NCBI GenBank assembly: GCA_038997165.1
Contig: JAWBAK010000001.1
Coordinates: forward strand, 485,320 to 549,319
Direction of reading: 5' to 3'
Source of the DNA: Candidatus Aenigmatarchaeota archaeon
Lineage (GTDB): Archaea; Aenigmatarchaeota; Aenigmatarchaeia; CG10238-14; SpSt-28
Length of the DNA: 64,000 bases
The stretch's first letter is position 1, and the number at the start of each line of letters is the position of its first letter. Of the stretch, positions 4,913 through 63,866 are shown in pieces. The position numbers and the translations under genes were made by a program. The notes under the pieces were generated by a model, which was not told the origin of the DNA, did not search any database, and saw nothing but the letters and a program-made list of their open reading frames with translations.

Positions 4913-4915
<3 letters not shown>
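4879..4915 (+). other. 5' strand of the 16S pre-rRNA processing stem with bulge-helix-bulge
   Basis: ggcatctggtgatag-agaa-aaa-gttgtagtggtaatt pairs with 6395-6431 and forms a canonical 3-4-3 BHB. Confidence 0.9.
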
Positions 4916-6390
<1,475 letters not shown>

Positions 6391-6394
6391 CTAG

Positions 6395-6499: not shown

Positions 6500-6585
6500 G
6501 CGGGGGTCGCCTAGCCTGGCCAAGGGCGCTGGGTTGAGGTCCCAGTGGCTTAGTGCCTTCGTGGGTTCAAATCCCACCCCCCGCA
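6500..6585 (+). tRNA. tRNA-Leu(GAG)
   Basis: Cloverleaf; ctggg-tt GAG gt-cccag anticodon arm; long variable arm; TTCAAAT T-loop. Confidence 0.95.
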
Positions 6586-6618: not shown

Positions 6619-7338
6619 ATGGGCTATTTAGAAATAATTATATCATCAACAATATTTTTAATGTTATTGGTAACAGCTTTTCTTTTCTTGAATTATAGAT
6701 TTCAAGAATATAAATATATAAATTCAGAAATTTTTTATAAAGAACTTTTGCTTTCATATTTTGATAGGCTAATATATTCTAATCCAAACGTTTATAAAGA
6801 TTTGGTTATTAAAATTTTTGAAATTAATATTAGCGAAAGTGATAATCAAGTTATTTATATAAATTTCAATGTTAGTTGTGAAAAGAAAATAAATGTAACA
6901 TCTATAAGAATTTATAATTCTAATTTTTCTGAATTAGCATTTAAAATAAAAGATTATGATGTTTGTAGCGATAATAGTTTATATAGAGCTAATATATCAA
7001 TTTTTTTACAAAATTTTTCTAACAAAGAAATTTTATATGTTTTTATGTCATCTAGTTATGGAAATCCAATATTATATGATTTTGAAGAAAATTATAAAAA
7101 TGCAAGTTATAAATATATAGGCACTATTACTTTAAAGGGTTTAGATCTTTTTACTTTTGAAAATATTGTAGAAGAATATTGTAAAAATAGAGGAGAAGTC
7201 GAGATAGAGGTTTTTGAAAATGAAAATATAATTATGAGTTGTAAAAAAAACAAAGCTGGAAATGTTTTTTCTTTTAATATGCCTATTTTATCGATTAATG
7301 GAAAAAAACTAAATATAATTTTTAGAATTTTTGAATAA
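6619..7338 (+). CDS. Pilin-like membrane-anchored hypothetical protein
   Basis: MGYLE plus hydrophobic N-terminal helix resembling a class III signal peptide; first gene of the cluster. Confidence 0.55.
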   Translation: MGYLEIIISSTIFLMLLVTAFLFLNYRFQEYKYINSEIFYKELLLSYFDRLIYSNPNVYKDLVIKIFEINISESDNQVIYINFNVSCEKKINVTSIRIYNSNFSELAFKIKDYDVCSDNSLYRANISIFLQNFSNKEILYVFMSSSYGNPILYDFEENYKNASYKYIGTITLKGLDLFTFENIVEEYCKNRGEVEIEVFENENIIMSCKKNKAGNVFSFNMPILSINGKKLNIIFRIFE

Positions 7339-7339
7339 A

Positions 7340-7726
7340 ATGGAAAAATTTTTAGAATTGGCAATTTCTTTTACTATTTTATTATCTTTTATTTTTGTTT
7401 TTCTTTTTTATTCTTCCAATTTATATTTAGAAGATGATGAAATAATAAAAGTTAAAATTTATAATGTTTTAAACTCTTATAATCTTGAAATAAGAAGCTA
7501 TGCGTTTTTAGGAAAAACAACTGAAATAGAAAATATTTTAAAAAATGAACTTCCAAAAATTTATGATTTTAAAGTTTTGATTTGTTATGAAAAAAATTAT
7601 GATGAATGCTTTAAAAATATAAAGTTTAATGCAAATAACGTTTTTTCTGTAAGTTATTTTTTTTCATCTAACTTTACTAACTATGAAAATATTGAATTAA
7701 TAATATATGCTTGGAAAAAAATTTAA
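7340..7726 (+). CDS. Pilin-like membrane-anchored hypothetical protein
   Basis: MEKFLELAISFTILL N-terminus (Glu then hydrophobic helix); ATG at 7340 preferred. Confidence 0.55.
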   Translation: MEKFLELAISFTILLSFIFVFLFYSSNLYLEDDEIIKVKIYNVLNSYNLEIRSYAFLGKTTEIENILKNELPKIYDFKVLICYEKNYDECFKNIKFNANNVFSVSYFFSSNFTNYENIELIIYAWKKI

Positions 7727-8267
7727 ATCACAATTTTTTATAATTGCAACAGGAATATTTATATTAATTTTTAGTGTTAACTTTTTTTATTTTGGATATT
7801 TAAGTAAAAAAACTAATTATCCAAGCAATTTAATAATTTTAAGAACTATCGATAATTATCTAACAGAAGCAAACCTTCTTTTGGAAAATGAAAAAATTTC
7901 AGAATTTTTTAGTTTTTCAGAATTTTTTATTAATACTTCTAAAAAAAGAAATTTTATTATAGAAGTTTTGTTTTCAAATATTAGTTTAGATTCTTCTCAA
8001 AAAAAGATTAATTTTGAAATATATCTTTTTTCTGAAAGAGAATATTTTTTAAATATTTCTTCTGATATAGATTTCTTAGCTTTTAATTTAGAGCCAAGAA
8101 TTTTAAAAAATATAAATATTAGTTTTGAAAATTCTCAATTAATTAATATAACTATTTTTAATTCATCTTTTTTTATAGTAAATTGTGAATCAAATTGCAA
8201 ATTTTTAATTTCTATGGGTTATAAAGATGATATAAAAATAATTAAATCTTTGCTTTTGAAAAGCTAA
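7707..8267 (+). CDS. Putative type IV pilin-like protein
   Basis: KKFKSQFFII class III-like motif followed by a hydrophobic helix. Confidence 0.6.
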   Translation: MLGKKFKSQFFIIATGIFILIFSVNFFYFGYLSKKTNYPSNLIILRTIDNYLTEANLLLENEKISEFFSFSEFFINTSKKRNFIIEVLFSNISLDSSQKKINFEIYLFSEREYFLNISSDIDFLAFNLEPRILKNINISFENSQLINITIFNSSFFIVNCESNCKFLISMGYKDDIKIIKSLLLKS

Positions 8268-8284
8268 AGAGTAATTTTATATTT

Positions 8285-8749
8285 ATGAAATTATTATCGG
8301 AATTTGTTTCGAAAGTTTTGATTTTTCTTATTTCTATTATAGCTATTTCTATAGCTTTACTTTTTTTAAATCCTATAATAGATAGGAATTTAAATTCTAT
8401 TTCAATTCAAGAAGCCATTTCTAATATGAAAAAAATTGAAGCTATAAGTAAAGAAGTTTTAAGCGAAGCAATAGGATCTCAGAGAGTTTTAGAGATTAGA
8501 ATTTATAGAGGTATTTTATATGTTAATAATAGTTCAATCGTTTATATTCTAGAATCAGATAATATTCCTTTAGAAGATTTTACTAAAAAAGATGGAAATT
8601 TATTTATTAAAAAAATTGGTAATACTTTTTCTATAACTTTAAATTTTGAATATGCAAATATTGTTGGCAATGTTTATTTATCTAGTGGAAATCATAGAAT
8701 ATGTATTCTTAAAGATGCTGAGCTAACAATAAAAGTTTATGTTTGTTAA
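8285..8749 (+). CDS. Putative type IV pilin-like protein
   Basis: MKLLSEFVSKVLIFLISIIAISIAL N-terminus; GSQRVL motif. Confidence 0.6.
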   Translation: MKLLSEFVSKVLIFLISIIAISIALLFLNPIIDRNLNSISIQEAISNMKKIEAISKEVLSEAIGSQRVLEIRIYRGILYVNNSSIVYILESDNIPLEDFTKKDGNLFIKKIGNTFSITLNFEYANIVGNVYLSSGNHRICILKDAELTIKVYVC

Positions 8750-8757
8750 AATTTTTT

Positions 8758-9624
8758 ATGAGATTAATATCTAATACAATATCTCTTTCTATTTATATAA
8801 TTTTATCACTTTTTTTAATATCTTTTTTTTTATCTATTACTTTTAAAGAATTAATTGAAAAATCTAGAATAAGTAGCACTTTTTTACAAGTAATAGAACA
8901 ATTAAGATTTTTAGATGCTACAATTTTATATTTAAACAGTTTAGATATAGGTTCAAAAACAAGTATAAAGATTTATATTCCAGAAGGAAGATTATTAGTT
9001 AAAGATGGTAAAATATTTTATGAATTAGAAACTGTTTCAACTTTTGAATTTCTTAAAAATATTGTAAGATCTTTTAAAAATTTGGCATTAATATTTAGAA
9101 ATGTTAGTATAAAATGTGAAATTAGAGAAAATAATTGTTTAGAAAGCGAGGAATGCATTTTTTCTATGTATAAATTAAATAATTCTCATATAGCAGATTG
9201 CAATTCTTTAAATTATCCTTATAAAATTTGTTGTAAAGATTTAGAAATTAGAAAAGCTGAGACTTGTTATGAAAAAGAGTCTGAAATTCTTAGAATTTTA
9301 AAAGATGAAAACTCTCATGCAGGTTTTAATAAATATTCCTTTAGAATTTGCTCATATCCAATAATTTTATGTTCTTTAAAGAATAAATGTAGCAATAATG
9401 AAATTTGTGTAGCGTCTTTTTATAAAGATTTTAATTCTCATGCAGCTGTATGTAATTATTATCCAAATAATCTTTGTTGTTATTCTTCTATTTCAGAAAT
9501 AGGTAAAATAATTCTAAGTTATTTAGATATAGAAATTATTGGTAATTTTGTAATTTCTAAAGGAGAATATACCTTAGTAATAGAAAAAATCGATTTTAAT
9601 AAAATAAAAATTTATGTATTATGA
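8758..9624 (+). CDS. Putative pilin-like protein with Cys-rich insert (three NSHxA repeats)
   Basis: MRLISNTIS N-terminus; repeated C..E.CIFS...NSHIADC / NSHAG / NSHAAVC units; paralogous frame to 8285. Confidence 0.6.
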   Translation: MRLISNTISLSIYIILSLFLISFFLSITFKELIEKSRISSTFLQVIEQLRFLDATILYLNSLDIGSKTSIKIYIPEGRLLVKDGKIFYELETVSTFEFLKNIVRSFKNLALIFRNVSIKCEIRENNCLESEECIFSMYKLNNSHIADCNSLNYPYKICCKDLEIRKAETCYEKESEILRILKDENSHAGFNKYSFRICSYPIILCSLKNKCSNNEICVASFYKDFNSHAAVCNYYPNNLCCYSSISEIGKIILSYLDIEIIGNFVISKGEYTLVIEKIDFNKIKIYVL

Positions 9625-10094
9625 AGTTAATATCTGCTTATATAGCAACAATTATAATAGTTTTAGTAACTCTTACTATTGGATTTTTTGTTTATACTTG
9701 GTATTTTCAATTTTTTCAAAGAACTGGTGAAGAAATTGAAAGGATTGAAGAAAAACGAATTTCTTGCCAATTTGGTTCATTTATAGTTTTAACAGAAACT
9801 CTAAATTGTACTTTTGAATTTTTAAATTTTTCTTTAAAAAACAATGGTTACATAGATTTATATAATTTGAAAGTTGTTGTTTTTGATGGAATAAAGATGC
9901 ATACATTAGATGTTTATGATGAAAATGGAAATATTGCTGATATTAATAATCCATTAAAGCCTAATACTGTTAACAATTATTATGTTAATATTTCTGGAAT
10001 TTCTAAAATTTTAAGTTTAGAGTTTTTAACTCAATGTGCTAATGTAAATATAAAGATTAAAGACTTAAATATATCATGTACACAGAAAGAATAA
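9621..10094 (+). CDS. Archaeal type IV pilin/archaellin N-terminal-like protein
   Basis: ISAYIATIIIVLVTLTIGFFVYTW pilin helix; LKNNGYIDL motif. Confidence 0.72.
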   Translation: MKLISAYIATIIIVLVTLTIGFFVYTWYFQFFQRTGEEIERIEEKRISCQFGSFIVLTETLNCTFEFLNFSLKNNGYIDLYNLKVVVFDGIKMHTLDVYDENGNIADINNPLKPNTVNNYYVNISGISKILSLEFLTQCANVNIKIKDLNISCTQKE

Positions 10095-10690
10095 AAACAA
10101 TTAGTAGGGGAATAATATTAATAATTTTAGGTATTATAATAGGTATATATCCTTTTCAAATAGTTGGAAATTTTTTAGAGGTTGAAAGTATTAGGGCAAA
10201 TACTAAAAAATTTTATGAGTTATTAATACCAAATTCTATTGTTAGTGTTGAAAGTGTAAAAAAGGAGGGAGAAATGTATAAAGTTTTAGTTAAGTTGATT
10301 TTAAATAATAATGTTAATTATATTGAAGCGTGGGTATCTAAAGATTCAAATATTTTAGTTGAAGGTGTAATATACTTAAAAGATTCTATTAAAACTTTAG
10401 AAAAATATAAGAAATTTGTAGAATGTTTAAATAATAAAGGAGTAAAGATATATGGTTTATTAGATTCTCAAAATTATCCTGATGCTGCATTATTAACTTC
10501 TAGACAACTAAATTTATTGGGAAGATATTCTTATTTAATTTTTGTTAGTTGCGATGGTGATATGATGCAAGCATGTATAAATTCTGGAATAACACAATTT
10601 CCAGCAGTAGTTTATAATGATAAAGTTTATTTTGGAGTTGGAGATATTGATTGGTTTTCTAATTTAACTGGATGTAAATTTATTGATTAA
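10076..10690 (+). CDS. Membrane-anchored thioredoxin-like fold protein without CxxC
   Basis: N-terminal TM; FVECL..KGVKIYG...VSC...C..GITQFP...LTGC pattern. Confidence 0.55.
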   Translation: MYTERIKTISRGIILIILGIIIGIYPFQIVGNFLEVESIRANTKKFYELLIPNSIVSVESVKKEGEMYKVLVKLILNNNVNYIEAWVSKDSNILVEGVIYLKDSIKTLEKYKKFVECLNNKGVKIYGLLDSQNYPDAALLTSRQLNLLGRYSYLIFVSCDGDMMQACINSGITQFPAVVYNDKVYFGVGDIDWFSNLTGCKFID

Positions 10691-10727
10691 AAATAAATTT
10701 AATTTATTGTTTAATTAAATTTTATTT

Positions 10728-11498
10728 ATGTTAGAAAGAATATTATTAGTATTTTTAATTTTTATTTCAACTTTTTTTATTGCTATCTCTTATGATTGTC
10801 CATTACAATCCCATCCTTTATCCGAAATTTGTCCTATAGATGTTAATTTAAATATGAGAGGATTTAATATAACAAATGTTGGAGAAATTATTGTTAGTGG
10901 AAGAATTGTTGCATCGATTTTATGTATTGGTAATGATTGTAAATCTTCATGGCCTAGTATAGTTGAATCGGATCCATTTTGGTCTTTTAATATTAGTAGA
11001 ATAAATATAGGATATTTAATTAAAAGAGGTGAATCTGGAATTTTTCAATCAATAATTTATGAAAAAAATGGTAAAATAGGTATTGGAACTGAAAATCCAC
11101 AAGATACACTTGAAGTTATTGGTAATATAACTGCTAGTGGGATTATTAGAGCAAATAAAATATGTGTAGGAGAAAATTGTAGCGATATTCTTGGAAACTT
11201 AAGTGGTCATGGTATAAAAAATACAATTGCTTATTGGTCTAGTGAAAATACTTTAGAATCAACTCCATTTTATGTTAATAGTAATTTTGACCTTAATTTA
11301 TCTTGGAAAAGTATTTTTAATGTTCTTTGGCTTAATTCAACTTATATATATTCTTCGGATTTGATTTATTCTTCTGGAAAAGTTGGAATATCTACATATC
11401 CGGAATATTCGTTAGATGTTATAGGTAATATTAGAGTTAGAATAGGATCAACTGTTTTTACTATTGAGAATACTGGAGATGTTTTAGTAGCACTATGA
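10728..11498 (+). CDS. Secreted tail-fibre-like beta-repeat protein 1
   Basis: Signal peptide; GKIGIGTENP, LCIGNDCKSSWP, LDVIGNI repeats. Confidence 0.7.
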   Translation: MLERILLVFLIFISTFFIAISYDCPLQSHPLSEICPIDVNLNMRGFNITNVGEIIVSGRIVASILCIGNDCKSSWPSIVESDPFWSFNISRINIGYLIKRGESGIFQSIIYEKNGKIGIGTENPQDTLEVIGNITASGIIRANKICVGENCSDILGNLSGHGIKNTIAYWSSENTLESTPFYVNSNFDLNLSWKSIFNVLWLNSTYIYSSDLIYSSGKVGISTYPEYSLDVIGNIRVRIGSTVFTIENTGDVLVAL

Positions 11499-13345
11499 AT
11501 AAAAAATATATATTTAATTTAAAGTATTATATTATGAAGATTAATATAGGTTTATCTCACATATTTTTAATCTTTTTAATGACTTTACTTTTTAACACAT
11601 CTTTTTCTCAAGGAAATTTTATAATAAGAAATAAAACAGATATAAACATAGTATATTTTATAGTTAACGGAACTACTGGTAGAGTTGGTATAGGATTAAT
11701 AAATCCTCAATATAAATTAGATGTTAGCGGTGATGTTAGAGTTAGTGGTAACTTATTTGTAACTAGTGGAATTAATATTGGAGGTGATTTAAGTATAGGA
11801 GGAAATATAGTAATAACTTCAGGAAGAGTAGTACAAAATATAGCTAGTGTTGGAACTAATTTAATTCCTTCTAGTGATAATTCTTATGATTTAGGTAATT
11901 CAACTCATAGATGGAGAGCTGTTTATGCAAGTGGATATTATATTGGCGCTACTCAAATAATTGATAGTTCAAGAAATATAATAAATGTTAATTGGGTTAA
12001 TGCAACTAATATAAACGCAACTCAATCAATAAGAGCAAGTATTATTTATCAAGGAAACAATCAAGTTATAGATACGATAAGTGCAAATGCACCAATTACT
12101 GTAAGTAGAAGTGGAAGTTCAGTAACTATTGGACTACAAGCAAGTGGAGTAACAGCAGGAACTTATGGATCTGCATCACAAGTACCTCAAATTCAAGTTG
12201 ATGCATATGGAAGAATAACTTCTGCAAGCAATGTTAACATTGCTATTGATGCTAGCCAAATTGTTTCTGGAATAATTTCTTCTGCGAGATTAGATAGTAA
12301 TATAGCTTGGTTAAATAGAACTCAAACATGGACAGCCCCTCAAACATTTAATGAAAACGTATGGTTTAATAAAAATGTTTTTATAGTCGGCAATATTTCT
12401 TATGTTAATGTTCAAAATTTAAACGTTAATGGAAGTTTCGTTCCAATAGCTACCGGAGTTTTTAGTTTAGGAAGTCCAGAATACAAGTGGAAAGATATAT
12501 ATGGAATAAATATATATGGAGATAATGTTTATTCTGGAGGTAATTTGGTATTAACAAACGTAACCAATTTTGCTAATTCAGCAGATAGTGACATTACAGT
12601 TAGTGGAACTTATAATAGCCTTAATTTACAAATAAGAGCTGGAGCTGTTGGAACAAATGAATTAGCTCAAATTTCTTGTCCTCCAAATCAGGTATTAGCT
12701 TCGATTGGTGGAGGTAGTTATACTTGTGTTGATGTAAATCCAGCAAATGTTATTAATGGTACTGGTCAGCCAGGACAAATAGCTTATTTTTCATCTACTA
12801 ATACATTAAGCGGAAGTAATCAGTTATTTTTGGATACTACGAATTGGAGAGTTGGTATAGGAACTACTTCACCAGTTAGAAAATTAGATGTGGTTGGAGA
12901 TATTAATGCAACTCAAGCAATTTATTCAAGCCAAGGATATTATGTTGGCACAACTCAAATAATAACTTCTGGAAGAGTATTACAAAATATAGCTAATGTT
13001 GGAACCCATTTAATTCCTTCTAGTGATAATGCTTTTGATTTAGGTAGTTTAACTAATAGATGGAGATGGGTTAATGCAACTAATATAAATGCAACTCAAT
13101 CAATAAGAGCTTCTCAAATTTGTATAGGAAATGATTGTAGAAGTGCATGGCCAACTTTAGTAGAAACTGATCCATATTGGAATTCAAATATAACTGCTAT
13201 TTCAGCTAATTATTTAATTAAAAGAAGTCCAACCGGTATAGCTCAATCGATAATTTACGATGATGGAGCTAAAGTAGGAATTGGAACAAATTCTCCAGCT
13301 GGTTTATTGCATATTAGAGGAGGAGATATAATAATAGAAGTGTAA
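11495..13345 (+). CDS. Secreted tail-fibre-like beta-repeat protein 2
   Basis: Signal peptide; GRVGIG repeats, IPSSDNSYDLG..RW, GVTAGTYG..VDAYGRITSA motifs typical of phage tail fibres. Confidence 0.75.
   Translation: MNKKYIFNLKYYIMKINIGLSHIFLIFLMTLLFNTSFSQGNFIIRNKTDINIVYFIVNGTTGRVGIGLINPQYKLDVSGDVRVSGNLFVTSGINIGGDLSIGGNIVITSGRVVQNIASVGTNLIPSSDNSYDLGNSTHRWRAVYASGYYIGATQIIDSSRNIINVNWVNATNINATQSIRASIIYQGNNQVIDTISANAPITVSRSGSSVTIGLQASGVTAGTYGSASQVPQIQVDAYGRITSASNVNIAIDASQIVSGIISSARLDSNIAWLNRTQTWTAPQTFNENVWFNKNVFIVGNISYVNVQNLNVNGSFVPIATGVFSLGSPEYKWKDIYGINIYGDNVYSGGNLVLTNVTNFANSADSDITVSGTYNSLNLQIRAGAVGTNELAQISCPPNQVLASIGGGSYTCVDVNPANVINGTGQPGQIAYFSSTNTLSGSNQLFLDTTNWRVGIGTTSPVRKLDVVGDINATQAIYSSQGYYVGTTQIITSGRVLQNIANVGTHLIPSSDNAFDLGSLTNRWRWVNATNINATQSIRASQICIGNDCRSAWPTLVETDPYWNSNITAISANYLIKRSPTGIAQSIIYDDGAKVGIGTNSPAGLLHIRGGDIIIEV
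11654..11830 (+). repeat. Module A, identical to 13531-13707
   Basis: Direct base-by-base match at offset 1877. Confidence 0.92.
11832..11968 (+). repeat. Module B, identical to 14822-14958
   Basis: Direct match at offset 2990. Confidence 0.92.
12851..12995 (+). repeat. Module C, near-identical to 14692-14836
   Basis: Direct match at offset 1841 with a few substitutions. Confidence 0.9.
12997..13261 (+). repeat. Module D, identical to 13725-13989
   Basis: Direct match at offset 728. Confidence 0.92.
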
Positions 13346-13398
13346 ATAAATAAAATATAAGTTTAAAATTAAAAAATATTAAAAAGAAAAGATATTTT

Positions 13399-16050
13399 AT
13401 GAAAACAAAAAATTTTTATATTGTTTTGTTTTTGATATTTATTTTTATTAATATTTATAAACTAGACTTGGTTAGTTCTCAAGTATATAAAGATTTTATA
13501 ATTAGAAATATTTCTAATACTTCTACTGTTTATTTTATAGTTAACGGAACTACTGGTAGAGTTGGTATAGGATTAATAAATCCTCAATATAAATTAGATG
13601 TTAGCGGTGATGTTAGAGTTAGTGGTAACTTATTTGTAACTAGTGGAATTAATATTGGAGGTGATTTAAGTATAGGAGGAAATATAGTAATAACTTCAGG
13701 AAGAGTATTGCAAAATATAGCTAGTGTTGGAACCCATTTAATTCCTTCTAGTGATAATGCTTTTGATTTAGGTAGTTTAACTAATAGATGGAGATGGGTT
13801 AATGCAACTAATATAAATGCAACTCAATCAATAAGAGCTTCTCAAATTTGTATAGGAAATGATTGTAGAAGTGCATGGCCAACTTTAGTAGAAACTGATC
13901 CATATTGGAATTCAAATATAACTGCTATTTCAGCTAATTATTTAATTAAAAGAAGTCCAACCGGTATAGCTCAATCGATAATTTACGATACAGGAACAAA
14001 TGTTGGAATTGGAACAACTTCACCAAGCTATAAATTAGATGTAGTTGGAGATATAAGAAGTACAGGAAGTGTGATAACTTCAATTGTAAAAGCAGAGGCT
14101 CCTTATACTTACGTGGGACAGGCAGATAATCTATTAGGAGTGGCTAGACTTATGCCTAATGCTTTCGGTTTTAATCCACCTTATAAAGTTGAAGAATATA
14201 ACCCAGGAAGTGGTACGTGGAACGACATAACCCAAAATTACACTTGGGGATATATCACAGATTTAAGGGGAACAGAAGTGGCAATTCCATTGGCAGCTAA
14301 TGTAGATAAGACTATTAGATTTTACTTTAATATAGGAGGCTGGAGTGGGGGAGATCTAACTGCCATTGTATTATATGCAAGATGGATAAACAGCCTAAAA
14401 CAAGTAAAGGTTGAATCTTCGACAACTTCAGATTTCTCAAGTGGAGTAACCACAAGATTAGATTGGAACGGAAATATAGGACATTGGGATGAGGTAACTC
14501 TTTGGCGCTTGACAAGTAGAACTGGCGGTGATACTTATATTAGAGTCACTTTCACTTTTATGAGAACAAGTGATGGAGAAATAAGGATAAGGGAGCTAAT
14601 GGGATTAAGTTATGCGGCTGTCGGTAGAATATTTGAAGGATATGTTCCATATAGTTGGGATCACAATAAAAATGTTTTCTTTTTGGGTAATGTTGGAATA
14701 GGAACTACTTCACCAGTTAGAAAATTAGATGTAGTTGGAGATATTAATGCAACTCAAGCAATTTATTCAAGCCAAGGATATTATGTTGGCACCTATCAAA
14801 TAATAACTTCTGGAAGAGTATTACAAAATATAGCTAGTGTTGGAACTAATTTAATTCCTTCTAGTGATAATTCTTATGATTTAGGTAATTCAACTCATAG
14901 ATGGAGAGCTGTTTATGCAAGTGGATATTATATTGGCGCTACTCAAATAATTGATAGTAATAGAAATTTGGTTAATATTAATCAAATTATTGCTGATGGT
15001 CCAATGAACATAGATAGTGGAACTTTATATGTAGATTCGGCTAATGATAGAGTTGGAATTGGAACGGCAAGTCCAACAGCAAAACTAGACGTAAGAGGAA
15101 ATATTATTCTTATTTCTCCCGATAGTGGAATATATGCATATGAAATGAGAAGAACAGATGAGGATAATAATTTACATTGGTGGAGAATATGGCATATGAA
15201 CAATAATTATAGAAAGAATGCACTAGAAATTTGGGAGTATTTAGCTAATACCTCTTATGATTCAAACCCGTGTAATAATAATCCTGGAGATATATGCGCT
15301 CCTCGAATTATTATTACTAGTGGAGGTAACGTTGGAATAGGAGGTATAGTTCCAAGCTATAGATTAGATGTAGCAGGAGATATAAGAGGTCAAAATAATT
15401 TGTATGTTTCTGGAAATGTTGGTATTGGAACAACAAATCCACAAGGAAAATTACATGTTTATGATGGAACAAAAGAGTTGATGAAAGTTGTTAATGATGC
15501 TGATGTTAGTGGTATTGTTGTTGGTAGTGCTGAGGGGGGAAGACATTTAATAATTAATGATGTTCCTCAAGCACGATGGGCTTTAGCTACTGGTGATTAT
15601 GATTTGTCTTTTCAGAATGATTATGGTGGAATATGGAATACAAGAATGATAATTACTGAAAGTGGTAATGTTGGTATAGGAACTACAGCACCTAATACGT
15701 TACTTCATCTTTACAAAACTGATGGAGTTGAATTAAGAACGGAGAGTGATTGGAATTATGCAATTTTTAGAGTAAAAGTTGGTAGTAATATGGGATGGTT
15801 TGGACGAGGTATTGGATGGAGTGGAATAGGATTATATAATGATCAAGGAGGAGGTATTTTATATCTTGCAGATATAACAGGCAATGTTGGTATTGGGACT
15901 CTTTCTCCATCAGAAAAATTACATGTTATGGGAAATATAAGAACTTCTGGAAATATAACTATTGAAGGTAATTTTATAAAGGATTCTTCCAATATAAACA
16001 GAATCCAGTTTGATGCTATAAATAGAAATGTAATAATTTGGGTTGGTTAA
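13399..16050 (+). CDS. Secreted tail-fibre-like beta-repeat protein 3
   Basis: Signal peptide; about 8 GNVGIGT..P..KL(D/H)V repeats separated by variable domains. Confidence 0.75.
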   Translation: MKTKNFYIVLFLIFIFINIYKLDLVSSQVYKDFIIRNISNTSTVYFIVNGTTGRVGIGLINPQYKLDVSGDVRVSGNLFVTSGINIGGDLSIGGNIVITSGRVLQNIASVGTHLIPSSDNAFDLGSLTNRWRWVNATNINATQSIRASQICIGNDCRSAWPTLVETDPYWNSNITAISANYLIKRSPTGIAQSIIYDTGTNVGIGTTSPSYKLDVVGDIRSTGSVITSIVKAEAPYTYVGQADNLLGVARLMPNAFGFNPPYKVEEYNPGSGTWNDITQNYTWGYITDLRGTEVAIPLAANVDKTIRFYFNIGGWSGGDLTAIVLYARWINSLKQVKVESSTTSDFSSGVTTRLDWNGNIGHWDEVTLWRLTSRTGGDTYIRVTFTFMRTSDGEIRIRELMGLSYAAVGRIFEGYVPYSWDHNKNVFFLGNVGIGTTSPVRKLDVVGDINATQAIYSSQGYYVGTYQIITSGRVLQNIASVGTNLIPSSDNSYDLGNSTHRWRAVYASGYYIGATQIIDSNRNLVNINQIIADGPMNIDSGTLYVDSANDRVGIGTASPTAKLDVRGNIILISPDSGIYAYEMRRTDEDNNLHWWRIWHMNNNYRKNALEIWEYLANTSYDSNPCNNNPGDICAPRIIITSGGNVGIGGIVPSYRLDVAGDIRGQNNLYVSGNVGIGTTNPQGKLHVYDGTKELMKVVNDADVSGIVVGSAEGGRHLIINDVPQARWALATGDYDLSFQNDYGGIWNTRMIITESGNVGIGTTAPNTLLHLYKTDGVELRTESDWNYAIFRVKVGSNMGWFGRGIGWSGIGLYNDQGGGILYLADITGNVGIGTLSPSEKLHVMGNIRTSGNITIEGNFIKDSSNINRIQFDAINRNVIIWVG

Positions 16051-16051
16051 A

Positions 16052-17323
16052 ATGTTAGGTAAAAAATTTATTATTATAATAGTTATTTTTGCGACTTTTT
16101 CATTAGTATATTTAAATTTATTTACAACATCTATCGAATCTTTTTTACTAATAAAAAATGATAATAAAAAAATTTTAAATGAAAAAATAAATAGTAATTT
16201 AAGTTATTTTCAGGATTTAAAAACTATTGTTTTTTCAGATTTAGATCCAATATTTTGTAATATTAATTTTAATCCTCCATGGTTTGTTGTATATAATAAT
16301 GATGGTGGCTACTTAATTATTATAAGTTCGGAAGGAAATTTATTCATTAATACAACTTCTAATCTTATTATAACATCTTCTGTTAGACAAACTGGATGGC
16401 TAAATGCATTTATTTTAAGAAATTCTTCTCATATTCTTTTTGCAGCTAATAGAACTCACACTCAAATTTATGGTGGATTTGTAGAAAATGTAAATCCAAT
16501 ACCAACTACAAATAGTTTTGTAGTGAGAAATCTTTCTAATAATGTTGTTTTAGCTATTTTTAATTCTTCAGATGGAAAATTTTATTTAAGAGGAAAAGCA
16601 GTATATACTGGAAGTCAAGCTGGATGTCCCTCTGATGGTTGGTATTGTTCAGGAGATATTCGTGAATATAGAGATTATTATTGTTATGCTCCTTCTGGTT
16701 CTTGTAGATATACTGTAACTCAATCTGAAAATTGTAATAATTATGATGTTTGTCTTAATTATGGAAATAATGCGGGCTGTGGCTCAGATCCCACTGCAGA
16801 AAAAAGAGATTATTATTGTTCTAATGGTGCTTGTGTATATACTTATTCTAGTGTAAATTGTGATAGCTATGATATTTGTACAAATGTATGTGGTGGTGAC
16901 AATAAGATATATTCTTATAAAGATTATTATGTCTCTTCTTCTTGTACTTGTACTTATTCTTTAGGATCCTTAGTAGAAGATTGTACAACAAAAGCATCTA
17001 CTGATACAGATGGAGGAGATGCTCCATTTACTCAAGGAACTGTAACAGATTATGTAGGTTGTAGTGGAACAAGCTCAACTTGTAATGTTTATAATACTTA
17101 TACGGATTATTGTTCTAGTAGTACAACTTTAGTAGAATATTATCCGAGCGGTAGTAGTTATGGAAGTAAAACGTATGATTGCTCTGTATTTTGGACTTGT
17201 GATATTTGTTATGGGCAACAAGGTTTGCGATATGCTTGTTATGCATGTATTACAGGAAAATGTGCTGGTGGATGTAGTAATTCACCAGTTTCTGGTTATA
17301 CGTGTATAAATTGTGTAATATAA
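16052..17323 (+). CDS. Secreted/anchored protein with Cys-rich C-terminal half
   Basis: N-terminal TM; F(I/V)(L/V)RN modules like the fibre N-termini; very many Cys in RDYYC repeats; TDTDGGD..QGTV..DYC motif. Confidence 0.7.
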   Translation: MLGKKFIIIIVIFATFSLVYLNLFTTSIESFLLIKNDNKKILNEKINSNLSYFQDLKTIVFSDLDPIFCNINFNPPWFVVYNNDGGYLIIISSEGNLFINTTSNLIITSSVRQTGWLNAFILRNSSHILFAANRTHTQIYGGFVENVNPIPTTNSFVVRNLSNNVVLAIFNSSDGKFYLRGKAVYTGSQAGCPSDGWYCSGDIREYRDYYCYAPSGSCRYTVTQSENCNNYDVCLNYGNNAGCGSDPTAEKRDYYCSNGACVYTYSSVNCDSYDICTNVCGGDNKIYSYKDYYVSSSCTCTYSLGSLVEDCTTKASTDTDGGDAPFTQGTVTDYVGCSGTSSTCNVYNTYTDYCSSSTTLVEYYPSGSSYGSKTYDCSVFWTCDICYGQQGLRYACYACITGKCAGGCSNSPVSGYTCINCVI

Positions 17324-17394
17324 ATTTGTTTAGATTATAATAAAATAAAATACTTTGTTTATTAATTTTGATAAAATTTTTAAAACAAATTTTT

Positions 17395-18478: not shown

Positions 18479-19756
18479 TTAATCTTGTTTTAACAACCAT
18501 TTCCATAAAGGTATGCATTTAATTTTTTTGTTTTCAAAATTTAACTCATCTTCATAATCCCAAGTAATTATTAATAAATCTTCGCATTTTAATAATTCAC
18601 TTGCTTTAATTAATGCCCTTATTTCTCTTTTTTCTATTTCATCTTTATTAGATGCATATGTTACTTGAATTAATTGCTTAATCTTTAACCCTTCTTTAAT
18701 TACAAAATCTACTTCATACTCATTAGTTTTAAAATAATATATTTTGCTTAGTGGTCTATAGTTCGTGCTTCTGAGTAATTCTAAGTAAACTGTATTTTCC
18801 ATCTTTTTTCCAAAATCTTTTTCAAATCTAACTAAATTAGATAAACCTAAATCACAAATATAAATTTTGTTTGGCCAGCTTTTTCTTTCATATAAACTTT
18901 TTCTAAATTTTTCTACACAAAAGCAAAAAAATATATCGGAAATTTTATCGAAATAATTATAAATAGTCGATTTTGTTTCAACTTTTAGGTTTGAAGTTAC
19001 ATAGTTAGCTATTTTCCTTATACTAATCTCTTTTGAAAAATTTTGAAGAATAAATTCAAAAATTAAAGATGCCACATTTATACTTTTTATACCAAACCTT
19101 TCAACAAAATCTCTATAGAAAATTAAATCGAAATATTCTTTAAGAAGTTTTTCTTTTTTCTCAAAAAATAATACAACTTCTGGATATCCACCCCATTCTA
19201 AGAATTCTTCTAAAAGTTTCTTTATTTTTATTTCCTCATCTAGAGAAATAAATTGCTTTATTTGTATTTCTTTAAACTTTAAAAATTCTCTAAAGCTTAA
19301 TGGTAATAAAATATAGCTTAGGCTTCTTCCTCTAAGTTGCGTTGCAATTTCCTTAGAAAGCAGTTTTGAAGAAGAACCTGAAATAAAAACATAATATCCC
19401 ATATCAAGTAGTGATCGAACTAAGGATTCCCAACTATTAATTACTTGAATTTCATCCAAAAAAATATTTTTAACCTTTTCATTAAAATAATTTTCATAAA
19501 TTCTCACTATTTTTAAAATTTCTTCTGGAGTAACATTTCTGAATGCAATATTTTCAAAATCGAAATAAATACTTTCACTTTCCTTAGAAAATAGTTTAAG
19601 TAAGAAATATGATTTTCCAGCTCTTCTTGGTCCAATTATGCTTATTACTTTATTTTTTATCTTTTCTACTTTTAACTCTCTTTCTATAATTTTTTCTTTT
19701 TCTATCCTTTCTTTAATAGATTTAAAGAATTCTATTACTAGTTTTTCATCAAACAT
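18479..19756 (-). CDS. AAA_14 ATPase with DUF4143 C-terminal domain
   Basis: GPRRAGKS, FLDEIQ, SGSSSKLL, LRGR, GGYPE, MEN.V, EVDFV. Confidence 0.92.
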   Translation of the reverse strand: MFDEKLVIEFFKSIKERIEKEKIIERELKVEKIKNKVISIIGPRRAGKSYFLLKLFSKESESIYFDFENIAFRNVTPEEILKIVRIYENYFNEKVKNIFLDEIQVINSWESLVRSLLDMGYYVFISGSSSKLLSKEIATQLRGRSLSYILLPLSFREFLKFKEIQIKQFISLDEEIKIKKLLEEFLEWGGYPEVVLFFEKKEKLLKEYFDLIFYRDFVERFGIKSINVASLIFEFILQNFSKEISIRKIANYVTSNLKVETKSTIYNYFDKISDIFFCFCVEKFRKSLYERKSWPNKIYICDLGLSNLVRFEKDFGKKMENTVYLELLRSTNYRPLSKIYYFKTNEYEVDFVIKEGLKIKQLIQVTYASNKDEIEKREIRALIKASELLKCEDLLIITWDYEDELNFENKKIKCIPLWKWLLKQD

Positions 19757-19807: not shown

Positions 19808-21075
19808 TTACATATAATTGCTTTTTGCTTCTAATACTAACCATTTCCATAAAGGTATGCATTTAATTTTTTTGTTTTCAAAATTTAACTCATCTTCATA
19901 ATCCCAAGTAATTATTAATAAATCTTCGCATTTTAATAATTCACTTGCTTTAATTAATGCCCTTATTTCTCTTTTTTCTATTTCATCTTTATTTGAAGCA
20001 TAAGTTACTTGAATTAGCTGTTTAATTTCTAAGCCTTCTTTAATTACAAAATCTACTTCGTTTTGCTGATAATCTTTAAAGTAAAAAATTTCAATTAGTG
20101 GATAAATATTTGTTTTTCTAAGTAATTCTAAAAATACACAATTTTCCATTAATTTTCCTATATCTTGTGAAAACCTTACTAAAACTGAAATTCCTGTATC
20201 AACAATATATACTTTTTTTGGCCAGCTCCTTCTAATATAAACACTTTTTGAAAATTTCTCAACAAAAAAATATCTTGTAATTTATCAATATAATCGTAAA
20301 GAGTCCTATTAGTAAAACTGACCCTTTCTTTTATATTTTTTCCTATTTTATTTATACTAATTTCTTTTCCAAAATTTTGAAAAATAAATTCAAATAAAAA
20401 TCTTCCTAGCTCAAAACTTTTAATTTTATGTCTTTCAACAAAATCAGAAAGAAATATTTCATCAAAATATCTTTTTAACAATTTTTCTTTTTCATCACTA
20501 AAAACAACTTCTGGATATCCACCTTCTTTTAAATACCTATCTAAAAGCCTTAATAACTTACCTCTTTCTTCAAAAATATAATATTCTTTAATTTCAAATT
20601 TATTGGCAATTAAAAATTCTCTAAAGCTAAATGGTAATAATAGATAACTTATTGTTCTTCCTCTTAATTGGGTTGCTATTTCTTTTGGTAATAATTTAGA
20701 CGAAGAGCCAGTAATAAAAATTCTATAATCTCTATCAATTAAAGTTCTTACTAAGCTTTCCCAATCCTCAACAAGTTGGATTTCATCAAGTAGAAGAGTT
20801 TTTGGAGAAAATCCCTTAACTTCAACAAAAATCTTTAAAATTTCGAAAAAATCTCCCACTTTAATATTTCTAAAAGCTAAATCTTCAAAATTTACATAAA
20901 GAGAATCCTGGTAGAATTATTTAAAAGATAAAGCATATACCATGTTTTTCCACCTCTTCTTGGTCCTAAAATAGAAATTGCTTTATCTTTAACATCCTTT
21001 ACTTCTAACTCTCTTTTAATTCCTCTAAATTTTCTTTCCCTTAGGAAATAATCCTTTATTAATTCTTTGTTTATA
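19808..21075 (-). pseudogene. Frameshifted second AAA_14/DUF4143 ATPase
   Basis: GPRRGGKT (~20945-20970), LLDEIQ..GGYPE (20179-20859 ORF) and MENCV..EVDFV (19808-20149) lie in separate, disrupted reading frames. Confidence 0.88.
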
Positions 21076-24058: not shown

Positions 24059-24151
24059 AGCCCCGGGAGGGATTTGAACCCTCGACCTCCTGCTTTCTTT
24101 AGCAGGTAGCGCCATACAAGGCAGGCGCTCTACCTGCTGAGCTACCGGGGC
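24059..24151 (-). tRNA. tRNA-Thr(TGT) with 20-nt intron at 37/38 (24095-24114)
   Basis: Reverse-complement cloverleaf GCCCCGG...CCTGC-CT TGT A[intron]A-GCAGG; relaxed BHB. Confidence 0.9.
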
Positions 24152-59325: not shown

Positions 59326-59425
<100 letters not shown>

Positions 59426-63758: not shown

Positions 63759-63866
63759 GGGCCGGTAGCTCAGCATGGTAGAGCGGCGGGCTTTTAGTTT
63801 GATTTACTAAAAGCTCTGAATAATGAAGAAACCCGTAGGTCGCGGGTTCAAATCCCGCCCGGCCCA
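63759..63866 (+). tRNA. tRNA-Lys(TTT) with 34-nt intron at 37/38 (63797-63830)
   Basis: GCGGG-CT TTT A[intron]A-CCCGT; CTTT/GAAG helix with 3-nt bulge. Confidence 0.92.
63797..63830 (+). ncRNA. Putative intron-encoded minimal C/D-box guide
   Basis: 10-nt antisense ACTAAAAGCT, then CTGA (63816-63819), then ATGAAGA (63823-63829). Confidence 0.55.

Follow-up and report, generated by a model that had tools for sequence, protein, structure and literature searches.

In bacterial type IV pilus systems, a set of minor pilins primes assembly and displays the non-pilin adhesin PilY1, and in T-even phages the genes for fibre chaperones or adhesins sit behind the distal fibre gene. The MAT fibres of Bdellovibrio are surface adhesins of a predator and combine exchanged tips with an N-terminal domain that does not vary and "would presumably tightly bind a surface element"; their anchor is given as unknown, and the authors also raise a possible interplay with type IV pili (PMC10769870). 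In Archaea, a two-gene platform marks the "system 1" filaments, which are reported to be frequent, though scattered, among DPANN genomes (PMC13705601). The way in which DPANN archaea recognise their hosts and stay attached to them has not been settled: lectin-like proteins or pili have been proposed, or unidentified filaments described, and in one cryo-electron tomography study fibre-like "antennae" sit on the host. Here we report on a chromosomal locus of eleven genes (g1-g11) at positions 6619-17323 of a 64,000-nucleotide stretch of DNA, which as a whole we call the window, from contig 1 (JAWBAK010000001.1) of assembly GCA_038997165.1. The organism, treated here as a small DPANN archaeon of the Aenigmatarchaeota type, has a genome of 651,930 bases in four contigs that is 94.5% complete; in DPANN archaea, a genome of 652 kb implies host dependence. 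We consider it fairly probable that this is a cell-surface attachment locus, which couples pilin-derived proteins to MAT-like fibres for attachment to a host. A full-text search, with subscription papers and supplements outside its scope, returned no description of such fibres in DPANN archaea.

The eleven open reading frames (ORFs), all on the + strand, lie at the coordinates claimed beforehand by a reading of the bare DNA (hereafter, the sequence-only reading). Their spacings from g1 to g11 are, in order, -8, -20, +17, -7, -4, -19, +37, -4, +53 and -8 nt, and each of them encodes exactly one strongly hydrophobic 19-residue segment, located at the N-terminus. The description of the locus as co-oriented, overlapping or closely spaced genes with N-terminal hydrophobic segments is thereby confirmed in all of its parts. 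Genes g1-g6 form a pilin-type cassette, g7 encodes a thioredoxin-like protein, g8-g10 encode fibres and g11 a Cys-rich protein.

The fibre genes g8 (256 amino acids, aa; 10728-11498, +), g9 (616 aa; 11495-13345, +) and g10 (883 aa; 13399-16050, +) encode secreted proteins that match phage tail proteins of the PHROGs collection: g8 at 1.5e-4, g9 at 1e-12 and below, including the tail fibre phrog_7121 at 5.5e-7, and g10 with phrog_9942 as its best tail-fibre match at 6.2e-29. Residues 671-783 of g10 (15409-15747, +) align to the solved trimeric β-helix of the Bdellovibrio MAT fibres, at 3.5e-6 to PDB entry 8OND (Bd2133; 8ond_A 135-223) and at 0.023 to 8OJN (Bd3182; 8ojn_C 24-146), and the similarity of this segment to 8OND may point to a trimeric fold for the fibres. 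Searches of PDB sequences with g9 and g11 gave nothing meaningful. The 56-nt GxVGIG unit occurs in 10 copies within 11681-15938. Taken together, the PHROG matches, the N-terminal segments and the similarity to 8OND bear out the earlier view of these proteins as tail-fibre-like, yet provided with signal peptides and cellular. They share with the MAT fibres Bd2133 and Bd3182 the GxVGIG β-helix units, which are similar in sequence, and also the general plan of cell-encoded, exported phage-like fibres with an invariant N-terminal domain and swapped, chimeric distal parts. In contrast to Bdellovibrio, the organism is an archaeon without an outer membrane, and the invariant N-terminal domain, which we name QSHPLS, is found mainly in one archaeal order. 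The fibre is also split over three genes, no Peptidase_S74 C-terminal chaperone domain was matched in g8-g10 at E up to 0.1, and the fibre genes are clustered with those for pilin-type proteins, for a thioredoxin-like protein devoid of CxxC and for Cys-rich proteins.

The QSHPLS domain ("QSHPLS..PID.NL....N.TN") stands directly behind the signal peptide of the short fibre g8. It comprises 40 residues, 12 of which are invariant over 11 loci (alignments A6 and A7), and its motif has one occurrence in the whole genome. Of 301 genomes of the phylum, 43 contain the domain, with strong matches confined to the order, and a library of 1.84 billion proteins contains 155 representatives; in 44 of the best 55 the domain starts at residue ≤61, in proteins of 183-4412 aa. 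Since its position is constant across proteins of such different length, the N-terminal end of the fibre can be regarded as invariant and the rest as variable, and the C-termini of the relatives' fibres all differ. The domain is absent from g9 and g10, which both begin with an FxxRN module. This F(I/V)(I/L/V)RN module had been noticed in the second and third fibres and in the Cys-rich protein, and we found one copy each in g9 and g10, two in g11 and none in g1-g8. Short hydrophobic strands close the fibres, as had also been noted (g8 ...GDVLVAL, g9 ...GDIIIEV, g10 ...NRNVIIWVG). That of g9 directly follows the final GIG unit (...L-x-V/I-x-G-D/N-I...) and needs no special explanation because it is an ordinary strand after such a unit; the last strands of g8 and g10 are located further behind the last unit.

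With the long tail fibres of tailed phages (phrog_9942, 3269 and 7121), the fibres have in common the repeat motifs, the modular exchange of parts and a small partner gene directly behind the distal fibre gene. These PHROG matches, as well as the G+C content of the fibre genes (30-34% within 12001-16000, against 21-25% in the flanks and ~21-25% over most of the window), would be expected if the locus were the remnant of a virus or of a tailocin-like element. However, the sequence-only reading had stated that capsid, portal and terminase genes are missing, and we found neither these nor sheath or baseplate genes among the 47 other ORFs of the window with Pfam, or among the 24 unannotated ORFs with PHROGs, where the lone "portal" row (E 5.9e-4) falls on a NUDIX hydrolase. 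Moreover, the fibres carry Sec-type signal peptides, a scan of viral contigs with g10, which detects close relatives only, gave no relative, and this chromosomal locus is conserved beside cellular pilin genes across an archaeal class. A viral or tailocin-like remnant is therefore exceedingly improbable. The raised G+C content of the fibre genes may be due to a Gly/Thr-rich composition or to foreign origin.

The fibres are mosaic. The DNA modules common to g9 and g10 are 229-300 nt long and 93-99% identical: 11651-11930 (+) pairs with 13528-13807 (95%), 12960-13259 with 13688-13987 (99%) and 12851-13079 with 14692-14920 (93%). In one relative (G012), a single fibre of 2693 aa combines a g8-type N-terminus, the central domain of g10 (39%), the central part of g9 (65%, at residues 1382-1600 of the G012 protein) and the shared modules (77%). 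A g11 homologue (62% identical) is located directly behind this giant fibre, whose C-terminus (...NKNVIIRVG) resembles that of g10; because of this match, the g10-type tip and g11 can be said to travel together in both genomes with a close g11 homologue. Of the observations made here, it is the fusion of g8, g9 and g10 modules in this protein that would favour an end-to-end joining of the fibres, as proposed in the sequence-only reading. The gene g11 itself (426 aa; 16043-17323, +) encodes a rare secreted or anchored protein whose 28 Cys agree with its earlier description as very Cys-rich. We found 12 homologues in 5.8 billion proteins, its own record (95% identity) included, with the names given all "hypothetical", and for g11 the ESM Atlas held no model, the best feature score being 0.77.

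In two genomes of the same genus, the fibre part is composed differently again. G001 fuses a g8-type N-terminus to g10-type modules. In G005, the place of g8-g11 between g7 and a downstream PD-(D/E)XK gene is taken by a 587-aa fibre and a secreted 1377-aa protein (L014 4040-8173) with four DUF2341 domains and a ConA-like domain. As another fibre set lies here between the same flanks, the slot from g7 to the PD-(D/E)XK gene accepts different adhesin cassettes. Identity to G001 along the operon amounts to 97% for g1, 95% for g2, 90% for g3 and g4, 86% for g5, 81% for g6, 80% for g7 and 39% for g8, i.e., divergence rises towards the fibre end. Metagenome contigs of other hot-spring samples (four runs), which are short and were matched to the locus at 85% likeness, cover the pilin part in long pieces at ~92-99% identity, and their patchy cover of the fibre genes is not readable as absence. 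Some of these contigs join g9-type to g10-type sequence exactly at the repeat modules, at 11992->13795 (X6, depth 415) and at 12961->13795 (X2, depth 73, with 33 other letters between), which as no more than a hint may reflect fibre chimeras of other strains or assembly artefacts across the repeats. No reverse transcriptase (PF00078) was found in the 94.5%-complete genome, and a diversity-generating retroelement is for this reason unlikely as the diversifier of the fibres.

The most constant neighbour of the fibre gene is g7 (204 aa; 10076-10690, +), which encodes a membrane-anchored protein. Of the 301 genomes sampled from the phylum, 75 encode a member of its family, and hardly any of them more than one. 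In the set of 5.8 billion proteins, g7 has 93 homologues, the close ones of which are labelled Candidatus Aenigmatarchaeota by their sources, and no Pfam domain is recorded for them; the names shown are all "hypothetical", except for two jgi "LptF permease" labels. The family profile (A1) reaches, at 7.1e-5, only the C-terminal part (positions 156-199) of the thioredoxin-like domain of a bacterial VKOR homologue (PDB 3kp8). The former label "thioredoxin-like" thus holds for the C-terminal half of g7 only, without the CxxC motif, which none of the 16 aligned members possesses; four Cys (C117, C159, C167 and C200) are invariant in these sequences. Lacking CxxC, g7 cannot be a classical oxidoreductase, and we infer that it is an extracytoplasmic helper or dock. 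A complex prediction for g7 residues 40-204 with the 40-residue N-terminal fibre domain (A7) returned ipSAE 0.00 in both runs, a value which says nothing either way.

We found that the association of these genes extends well beyond the genome under study. The order g1-g7 is kept in G001 (80-97% identity) and G005 (66-89%), with a different fibre after g7 in each. Nine loci of other genera show the same gene set, which is complete in four of them (L019, L022, L023 and L025): MKG/MRG pilins, a Laminin_G_3 pilin of ~490-610 aa, g2-like and g1-like genes whose order is unchanged, a protein with the Cys/His domain, g7 and a fibre. The relatives' cassette also contains a ~200-aa MKGQ protein at the g3 slot, an Ig-domain protein and one or two g6-type pilins matching Pilin_N. 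In a sample of 28 g7-containing loci (16 of the order, the window included, and 12 of other families of the class), 18 of the stretches examined contain a GxVGIG/QSHPLS fibre, 17 the Cys/His domain and likewise 17 a class-III-like ORF, the last count using a crude pattern that may include some Sec signal peptides. Both g7 and the QSHPLS domain are present in 28 genomes of the phylum sample, and 20 of these have them ≤5 kb apart. The linkage counts are lower bounds, as fibre genes are often found at contig ends. The sequence-only reading had named unlinked pilin and fibre genes in relatives as one of the results that would speak against it; they proved to be linked. The g7-fibre pair diverges from the pilin cassette in most relatives, while here all genes are co-oriented. 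It is the survival of the linkage through such rearrangement across the class that argues for a joint function, though contact between the products is not proven thereby. In one of the complete loci (L025 of G023, 16122-17330), the fibre gene beside g7 starts with a masked stretch (X run) and runs off the contig.

Comparison with these loci identifies g1-g6 as a reduced version of a cassette of accessory pilins that has been conserved throughout the class. The cassette is headed by g1 (239 aa; 6619-7338, +), an N-anchored protein that is 81-97% identical in G005 and G001. Relatives encode longer homologues of it, with 366-431 aa, in the corresponding place (93% probability and E 3.5e-7 when A4 and A5 were compared by hhalign). 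The small pilin-like protein g2 (131 aa; 7331-7726, +) matches ~130-aa proteins of relatives in BLASTP at E 1e-5 to 6e-12, most of which begin with MKGQ or MKGT followed by a hydrophobic helix. The N-terminus of g3 (186 aa; 7707-8267, +) reads ...KSQ and then continues as a hydrophobic helix; its slot is occupied in relatives by the 190-205-aa "MKGQ" proteins. By BLASTP to relatives (E 1e-8 to 1e-15), g4 (154 aa; 8285-8749, +) is a truncated homologue of the 490-610-aa Laminin_G_3 pilin; the relatives' proteins start with MKG/MRG-x-S/T-P and match Laminin_G_3 at 1.6e-35 to 3.5e-24 and DUF7289 at 3.9e-6, while g4 is devoid of the lectin domain. The last gene, g6 (157 aa; 9621-10094, +), encodes a member of an archaeal type IV pilin family. 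On its own, it matches NCBIfam UpsA best, at 6.3e-6 and below the cut-off, and Pfam Pilin_N is matched by 6 of the 11 family members, g6 itself not among them. The family profile (A10) matches solved pilus subunits, namely 8fk7_A at 1.8e-12, 8rey_M at 3e-5 and 8gi2 (Natrinema PilA2) at 1.7e-3, and by these matches the g6 family clearly belongs to the filament-forming pilins. No match to a recognised pilin family or a solved pilus subunit was found for g1-g5. The label "six pilin-like", given earlier, can hence be upheld through the relatives of g1-g6, except that for g3 it is drawn from the position in the cassette.

The product of g5 (293 aa, 14 Cys; 8743-9624, +) has a pilin-like scaffold into which a three-repeat, all-β Cys/His domain ("NSH") is inserted at ~114-258. 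In an AlphaFold2 (AF2) model built from 13 sequences (mean pLDDT 83), an N-terminal helix of 64 residues (2-65) is combined with a β-sheet formed by strands at 72-95 and 264-292, i.e., g5, the one of g1-g6 that was modelled, shows the helix-on-sheet architecture of pilins. The insert is a threefold C..E.C..S..NSH..C..Y.K.CC (alignment A8). Of 41 related genomes, 25 were found to encode this domain. Most relatives have it at the beginning of a secreted protein of its own (300-700 aa), which adjoins g7, while the fusion with the pilin-like scaffold is seen in this genus and in G028. The C-terminal domain of PCSK9 consists of three Cys-rich β modules, and beyond the long helix this Cys/His-rich domain (7anq_A) is the best structural match of the g5 insert, with Z 6.6 and a root-mean-square deviation of 3.2 Å over 119 residues. 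The top Foldseek rows for g5 are the same PCSK9 domain, weak at E 6e-3; with the whole g5 model, Foldseek gave nothing at E ≤0.001. A profile search of PDB sequences produced nothing meaningful, and there is no sequence similarity to PCSK9. The score is middling, and we take the likeness as one of fold only, with no shared function implied. As leads only, the ESM Atlas neighbours of g5 belong to small clusters from Nanobdellota/Methanobacteriota; Class_IIIsignal is present in 12% of one cluster, and DUF7289 in 14% of a second.

The arrangement of a small pilin-like set in fixed order beside a large non-pilin adhesin gene recalls the PilY1 system, which we take as a working model for how the fibres might be presented. 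Yet, the adhesin is a β-propeller there and tail-fibre-like here, and the likeness is one of gene arrangement only. The archaeal system 1 and the Epd pilus of Methanococcus maripaludis resemble the locus in combining an ATPase and a pair of platform genes with a number of minor pilins and with components of adhesin type (PMC13705601; PMC4858521). In relatives, two T2SSF genes adjoin the cassette, and this genome encodes orthologues of them. The locus differs from system 1 and Epd in that the machinery is unlinked and the -1 Gly is missing, and the likeness to system 1 is one of gene sets. Tail-fibre-like adhesins, a g7-type protein and a Cys/His domain are not mentioned in the portions of the two sources that were available (PMC13705601; PMC4858521).

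Several observations weigh against our interpretation, and the first group of them concerns the pilins. No Pfam or NCBIfam model scores above cut-off for any of g1-g7. Homology of g3 to the "MKGQ" proteins of relatives received a probability of 3% in hhalign, and none is detectable outside the genus. Class III signal peptides are short charged leaders ending with K/R and then G, A or S, followed by a hydrophobic helix, and under the strict pattern they are found in no ORF of the three same-genus loci (window, G001 and G005): g4 and g6 begin with MK-L, g1, g2 and g5 have no site, and only g3 possesses K-S-Q. The K/R-G site is likewise absent in the relatives of g1, while the relatives' proteins of g4 type and those at the g2 and g3 positions do show the class III leader. 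A bulky residue at -1 should block cleavage by prepilin peptidase. The residue before the helix of g6 is Leu or Ile in this genus, as against K-G or K-A in 8 of 8 more distant family members, and the leaders of both g4 and g6 read MKI/MKL in G001 and G005; such a loss of the -1 Gly would speak against a canonical pilus in this genome. Furthermore, no ATPase, platform or prepilin peptidase gene is encoded with the pilins. The pilus ATPase (53% identical) and two platform genes (32-40%), which are orthologues of the genes flanking the cassette in relatives, lie at 163.8-167.0 kb of contig 1, ~325 kb from the locus, and the only Peptidase_A24-like gene, at 80701-81507 of contig 2, is below the cut-off. 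Machinery adjoins the cassette in L025, where two T2SSF genes abut the pilins, and in L026, where T2SSE and T2SSF are located 2 kb from g7.

From these observations it could be argued that g1-g6 do not constitute a pilus at all, but stay unprocessed and unpolymerised in the membrane, as a fixed, pilin-derived base for g7, the Cys/His domain and the fibres. The changed g4 and g6 leaders and the distant machinery fit this explanation, as do the lengths of g1 and g4, which are much shorter than in relatives with the lectin domain lost, and the fact that two other pilins of the same genome retain the canonical MKG (MKG-ISPLIAT). One of these pilins is a neighbour of the ATPase and platform genes (contig 1, 163310-167019) and the second lies 13 kb upstream of the locus (contig 1, 479011-479436). 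However, with a leader of only two residues cleavage may be dispensable, the g6 family is clearly among the filament-forming pilins and g3 retains its K-S-Q site. We hold a membrane platform of this kind to be unlikely. Under the reading that we prefer, in which pilin-derived proteins are coupled to the fibres whatever the state of their polymerisation, display of the fibres on a type IV pilus, as the sequence-only reading proposed, would be one of two possible arrangements.

The second group of contrary observations concerns the linkage. In 8 of the 28 genomes possessing both, g7 and the fibre domain are found on different contigs, among them G012, an assembly of 10 contigs. In four of the six other genomes of the genus (G002, G003, G004 and G006; completeness 79-91%), searches with two genes of the locus, g5 and g7, and with the QSHPLS domain gave nothing closely similar. 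The fused G012 fibre contains no FxxRN motif, which means that the g8/g9 junction is not a simple split. One may suppose that the genes are neighbours without a joint function, grouped downstream of the 16S gene in an island that encodes surface proteins, with pili and fibres acting independently. The replacement of the fibre cassette between relatives as close as G005 and the separate contigs of g7 and fibre in G012 are in keeping with this. Still, the linkage persists across families despite the change in orientation, and both g5 and its G028 orthologue fuse the Cys/His domain to a pilin-like scaffold, which makes mere neighbourhood quite improbable in our judgement. With regard to the four genomes in question, the position beside the 16S gene may account for the absence of the locus from several metagenome-assembled genomes of the genus, through assembly loss next to that gene.

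The remaining point concerns what the fibre tips bind. The central part of g10 (residues 222-430; 14062-14688, +) was modelled by AF2, at pLDDT 56.7 and pTM 0.60, as a β-sandwich resembling carbohydrate-binding modules (CBMs). Its VIA Z values are 8.0 and 7.9 (GH78 rhamnosidase chain, Bacteroides SGBP-B) and 7.0 for CBM32, and Foldseek retrieved CBM11 at 1.6e-4 plus phage tailspike and tail-fibre entries; it has no Pfam match and two close homologues, 81% and 63% identical, within other fibres. The model would fit glycan binding with low confidence, being weak and reaching Z values (≤8) that are middling. Host binding is deduced by analogy with MAT, phage fibres and lectin-like folds, so the fibres could be thought to have another use, e.g., cohesion between symbiont cells, binding to mineral or biofilm matrix, or decoying viruses. 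Against such uses stand the host dependence implied by the genome size given above and the mosaic, fast-changing distal modules behind a fixed N-terminus, which is the pattern of receptor-binding proteins; we regard them as very improbable. The closer of the two homologues belongs to a 1185-aa protein (P0095), which starts inside the QSHPLS domain and carries DUF2341. It is encoded on a 4.2-kb contig labelled Ignisphaera sp., which could be a mis-binned symbiont contig or a hint of host association.

The attachment reading, which we favour, can be formulated as follows. The products of g1-g6 would either join a filament built by the distant Epd-like ("system 1") ATPase and platform, or remain in the membrane as a pilin-derived platform. 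Those of g7-g11 would make secreted phage-tail-fibre-like fibres of the Bdellovibrio MAT kind, exported by the Sec route and assembled outside the cell, presumably as trimers. The invariant QSHPLS domain of g8 may hold the fibres on the cell, with g7 as their likeliest partner or helper, to which the protein with the Cys/His domain and the pilin cassette may be added or preferred. Distal modules, which vary and include the CBM-like β-sandwich of g10 and perhaps g11 at the g10-type tip, would bind glycans or proteins of the host surface, and the near-identical modules would allow recombination to reshuffle the fibres. We put forward tentatively, as a doubtful extension, that the locus is a class-wide DPANN cellular counterpart of the phage receptor-binding apparatus. 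Exported trimeric fibres would plug via QSHPLS into a pilin-derived base containing a lectin-like Cys/His domain, the redox-dead g7 would act as assembly helper or dock, and host range would be re-tuned by recombination of modules and by swapping of cassettes between g7 and the downstream flank. If this were true, pilins would have been recruited here as an anchor for virus-like fibres and not as an adhesive filament.

For host recognition and attachment in DPANN archaea, the locus supplies candidates that are concrete and conserved: a family of fibres akin to those for which prey binding by Bdellovibrio has been proven experimentally, with a fixed, putative N-terminal docking domain, a constant partner gene from an unnamed family (g7) and a new triple-repeat Cys/His domain. 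It also ties the fibres to type IV pilin genes, a connection that was no more than a suspicion in the Bdellovibrio work, and would mean that a cellular parasite of the other prokaryotic domain has independently put the architecture of phage fibres to use.

Upstream of the locus, the window contains an archaeal 16S rRNA gene (4913-6391), which is not adjoined by a 23S gene, and a tRNA-Leu gene (6500-6585), with g1 starting only 33 nt beyond. The eleven-gene operon may be transcribed by read-through from the rRNA/tRNA promoter. RNA data were absent among the 15 public runs containing DNA of the locus, and these runs carry the label hot springs metagenome. In G005, the region upstream of g1 (L014 14157-15529) holds G+C-rich spurious ORFs, as is typical for an rRNA gene. 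The remaining genes of the window are housekeeping genes as identified with Pfam, including those for RNA polymerase, ribosomal proteins, EF-2, eRF1, MCM, TBP, SMC and the Suf system. Downstream, a gene for an AAA_14/DUF4143 ATPase is intact at 18479-19756 (minus strand), and a neighbouring second copy is split into an AAA_14 part (20179-20859) and a DUF4143 part (19808-20149). Rfam tRNAs of 93-108 nt at 24059-24151, 59327-59425 and 63759-63866, which ARAGORN left untyped or missed, probably contain introns.

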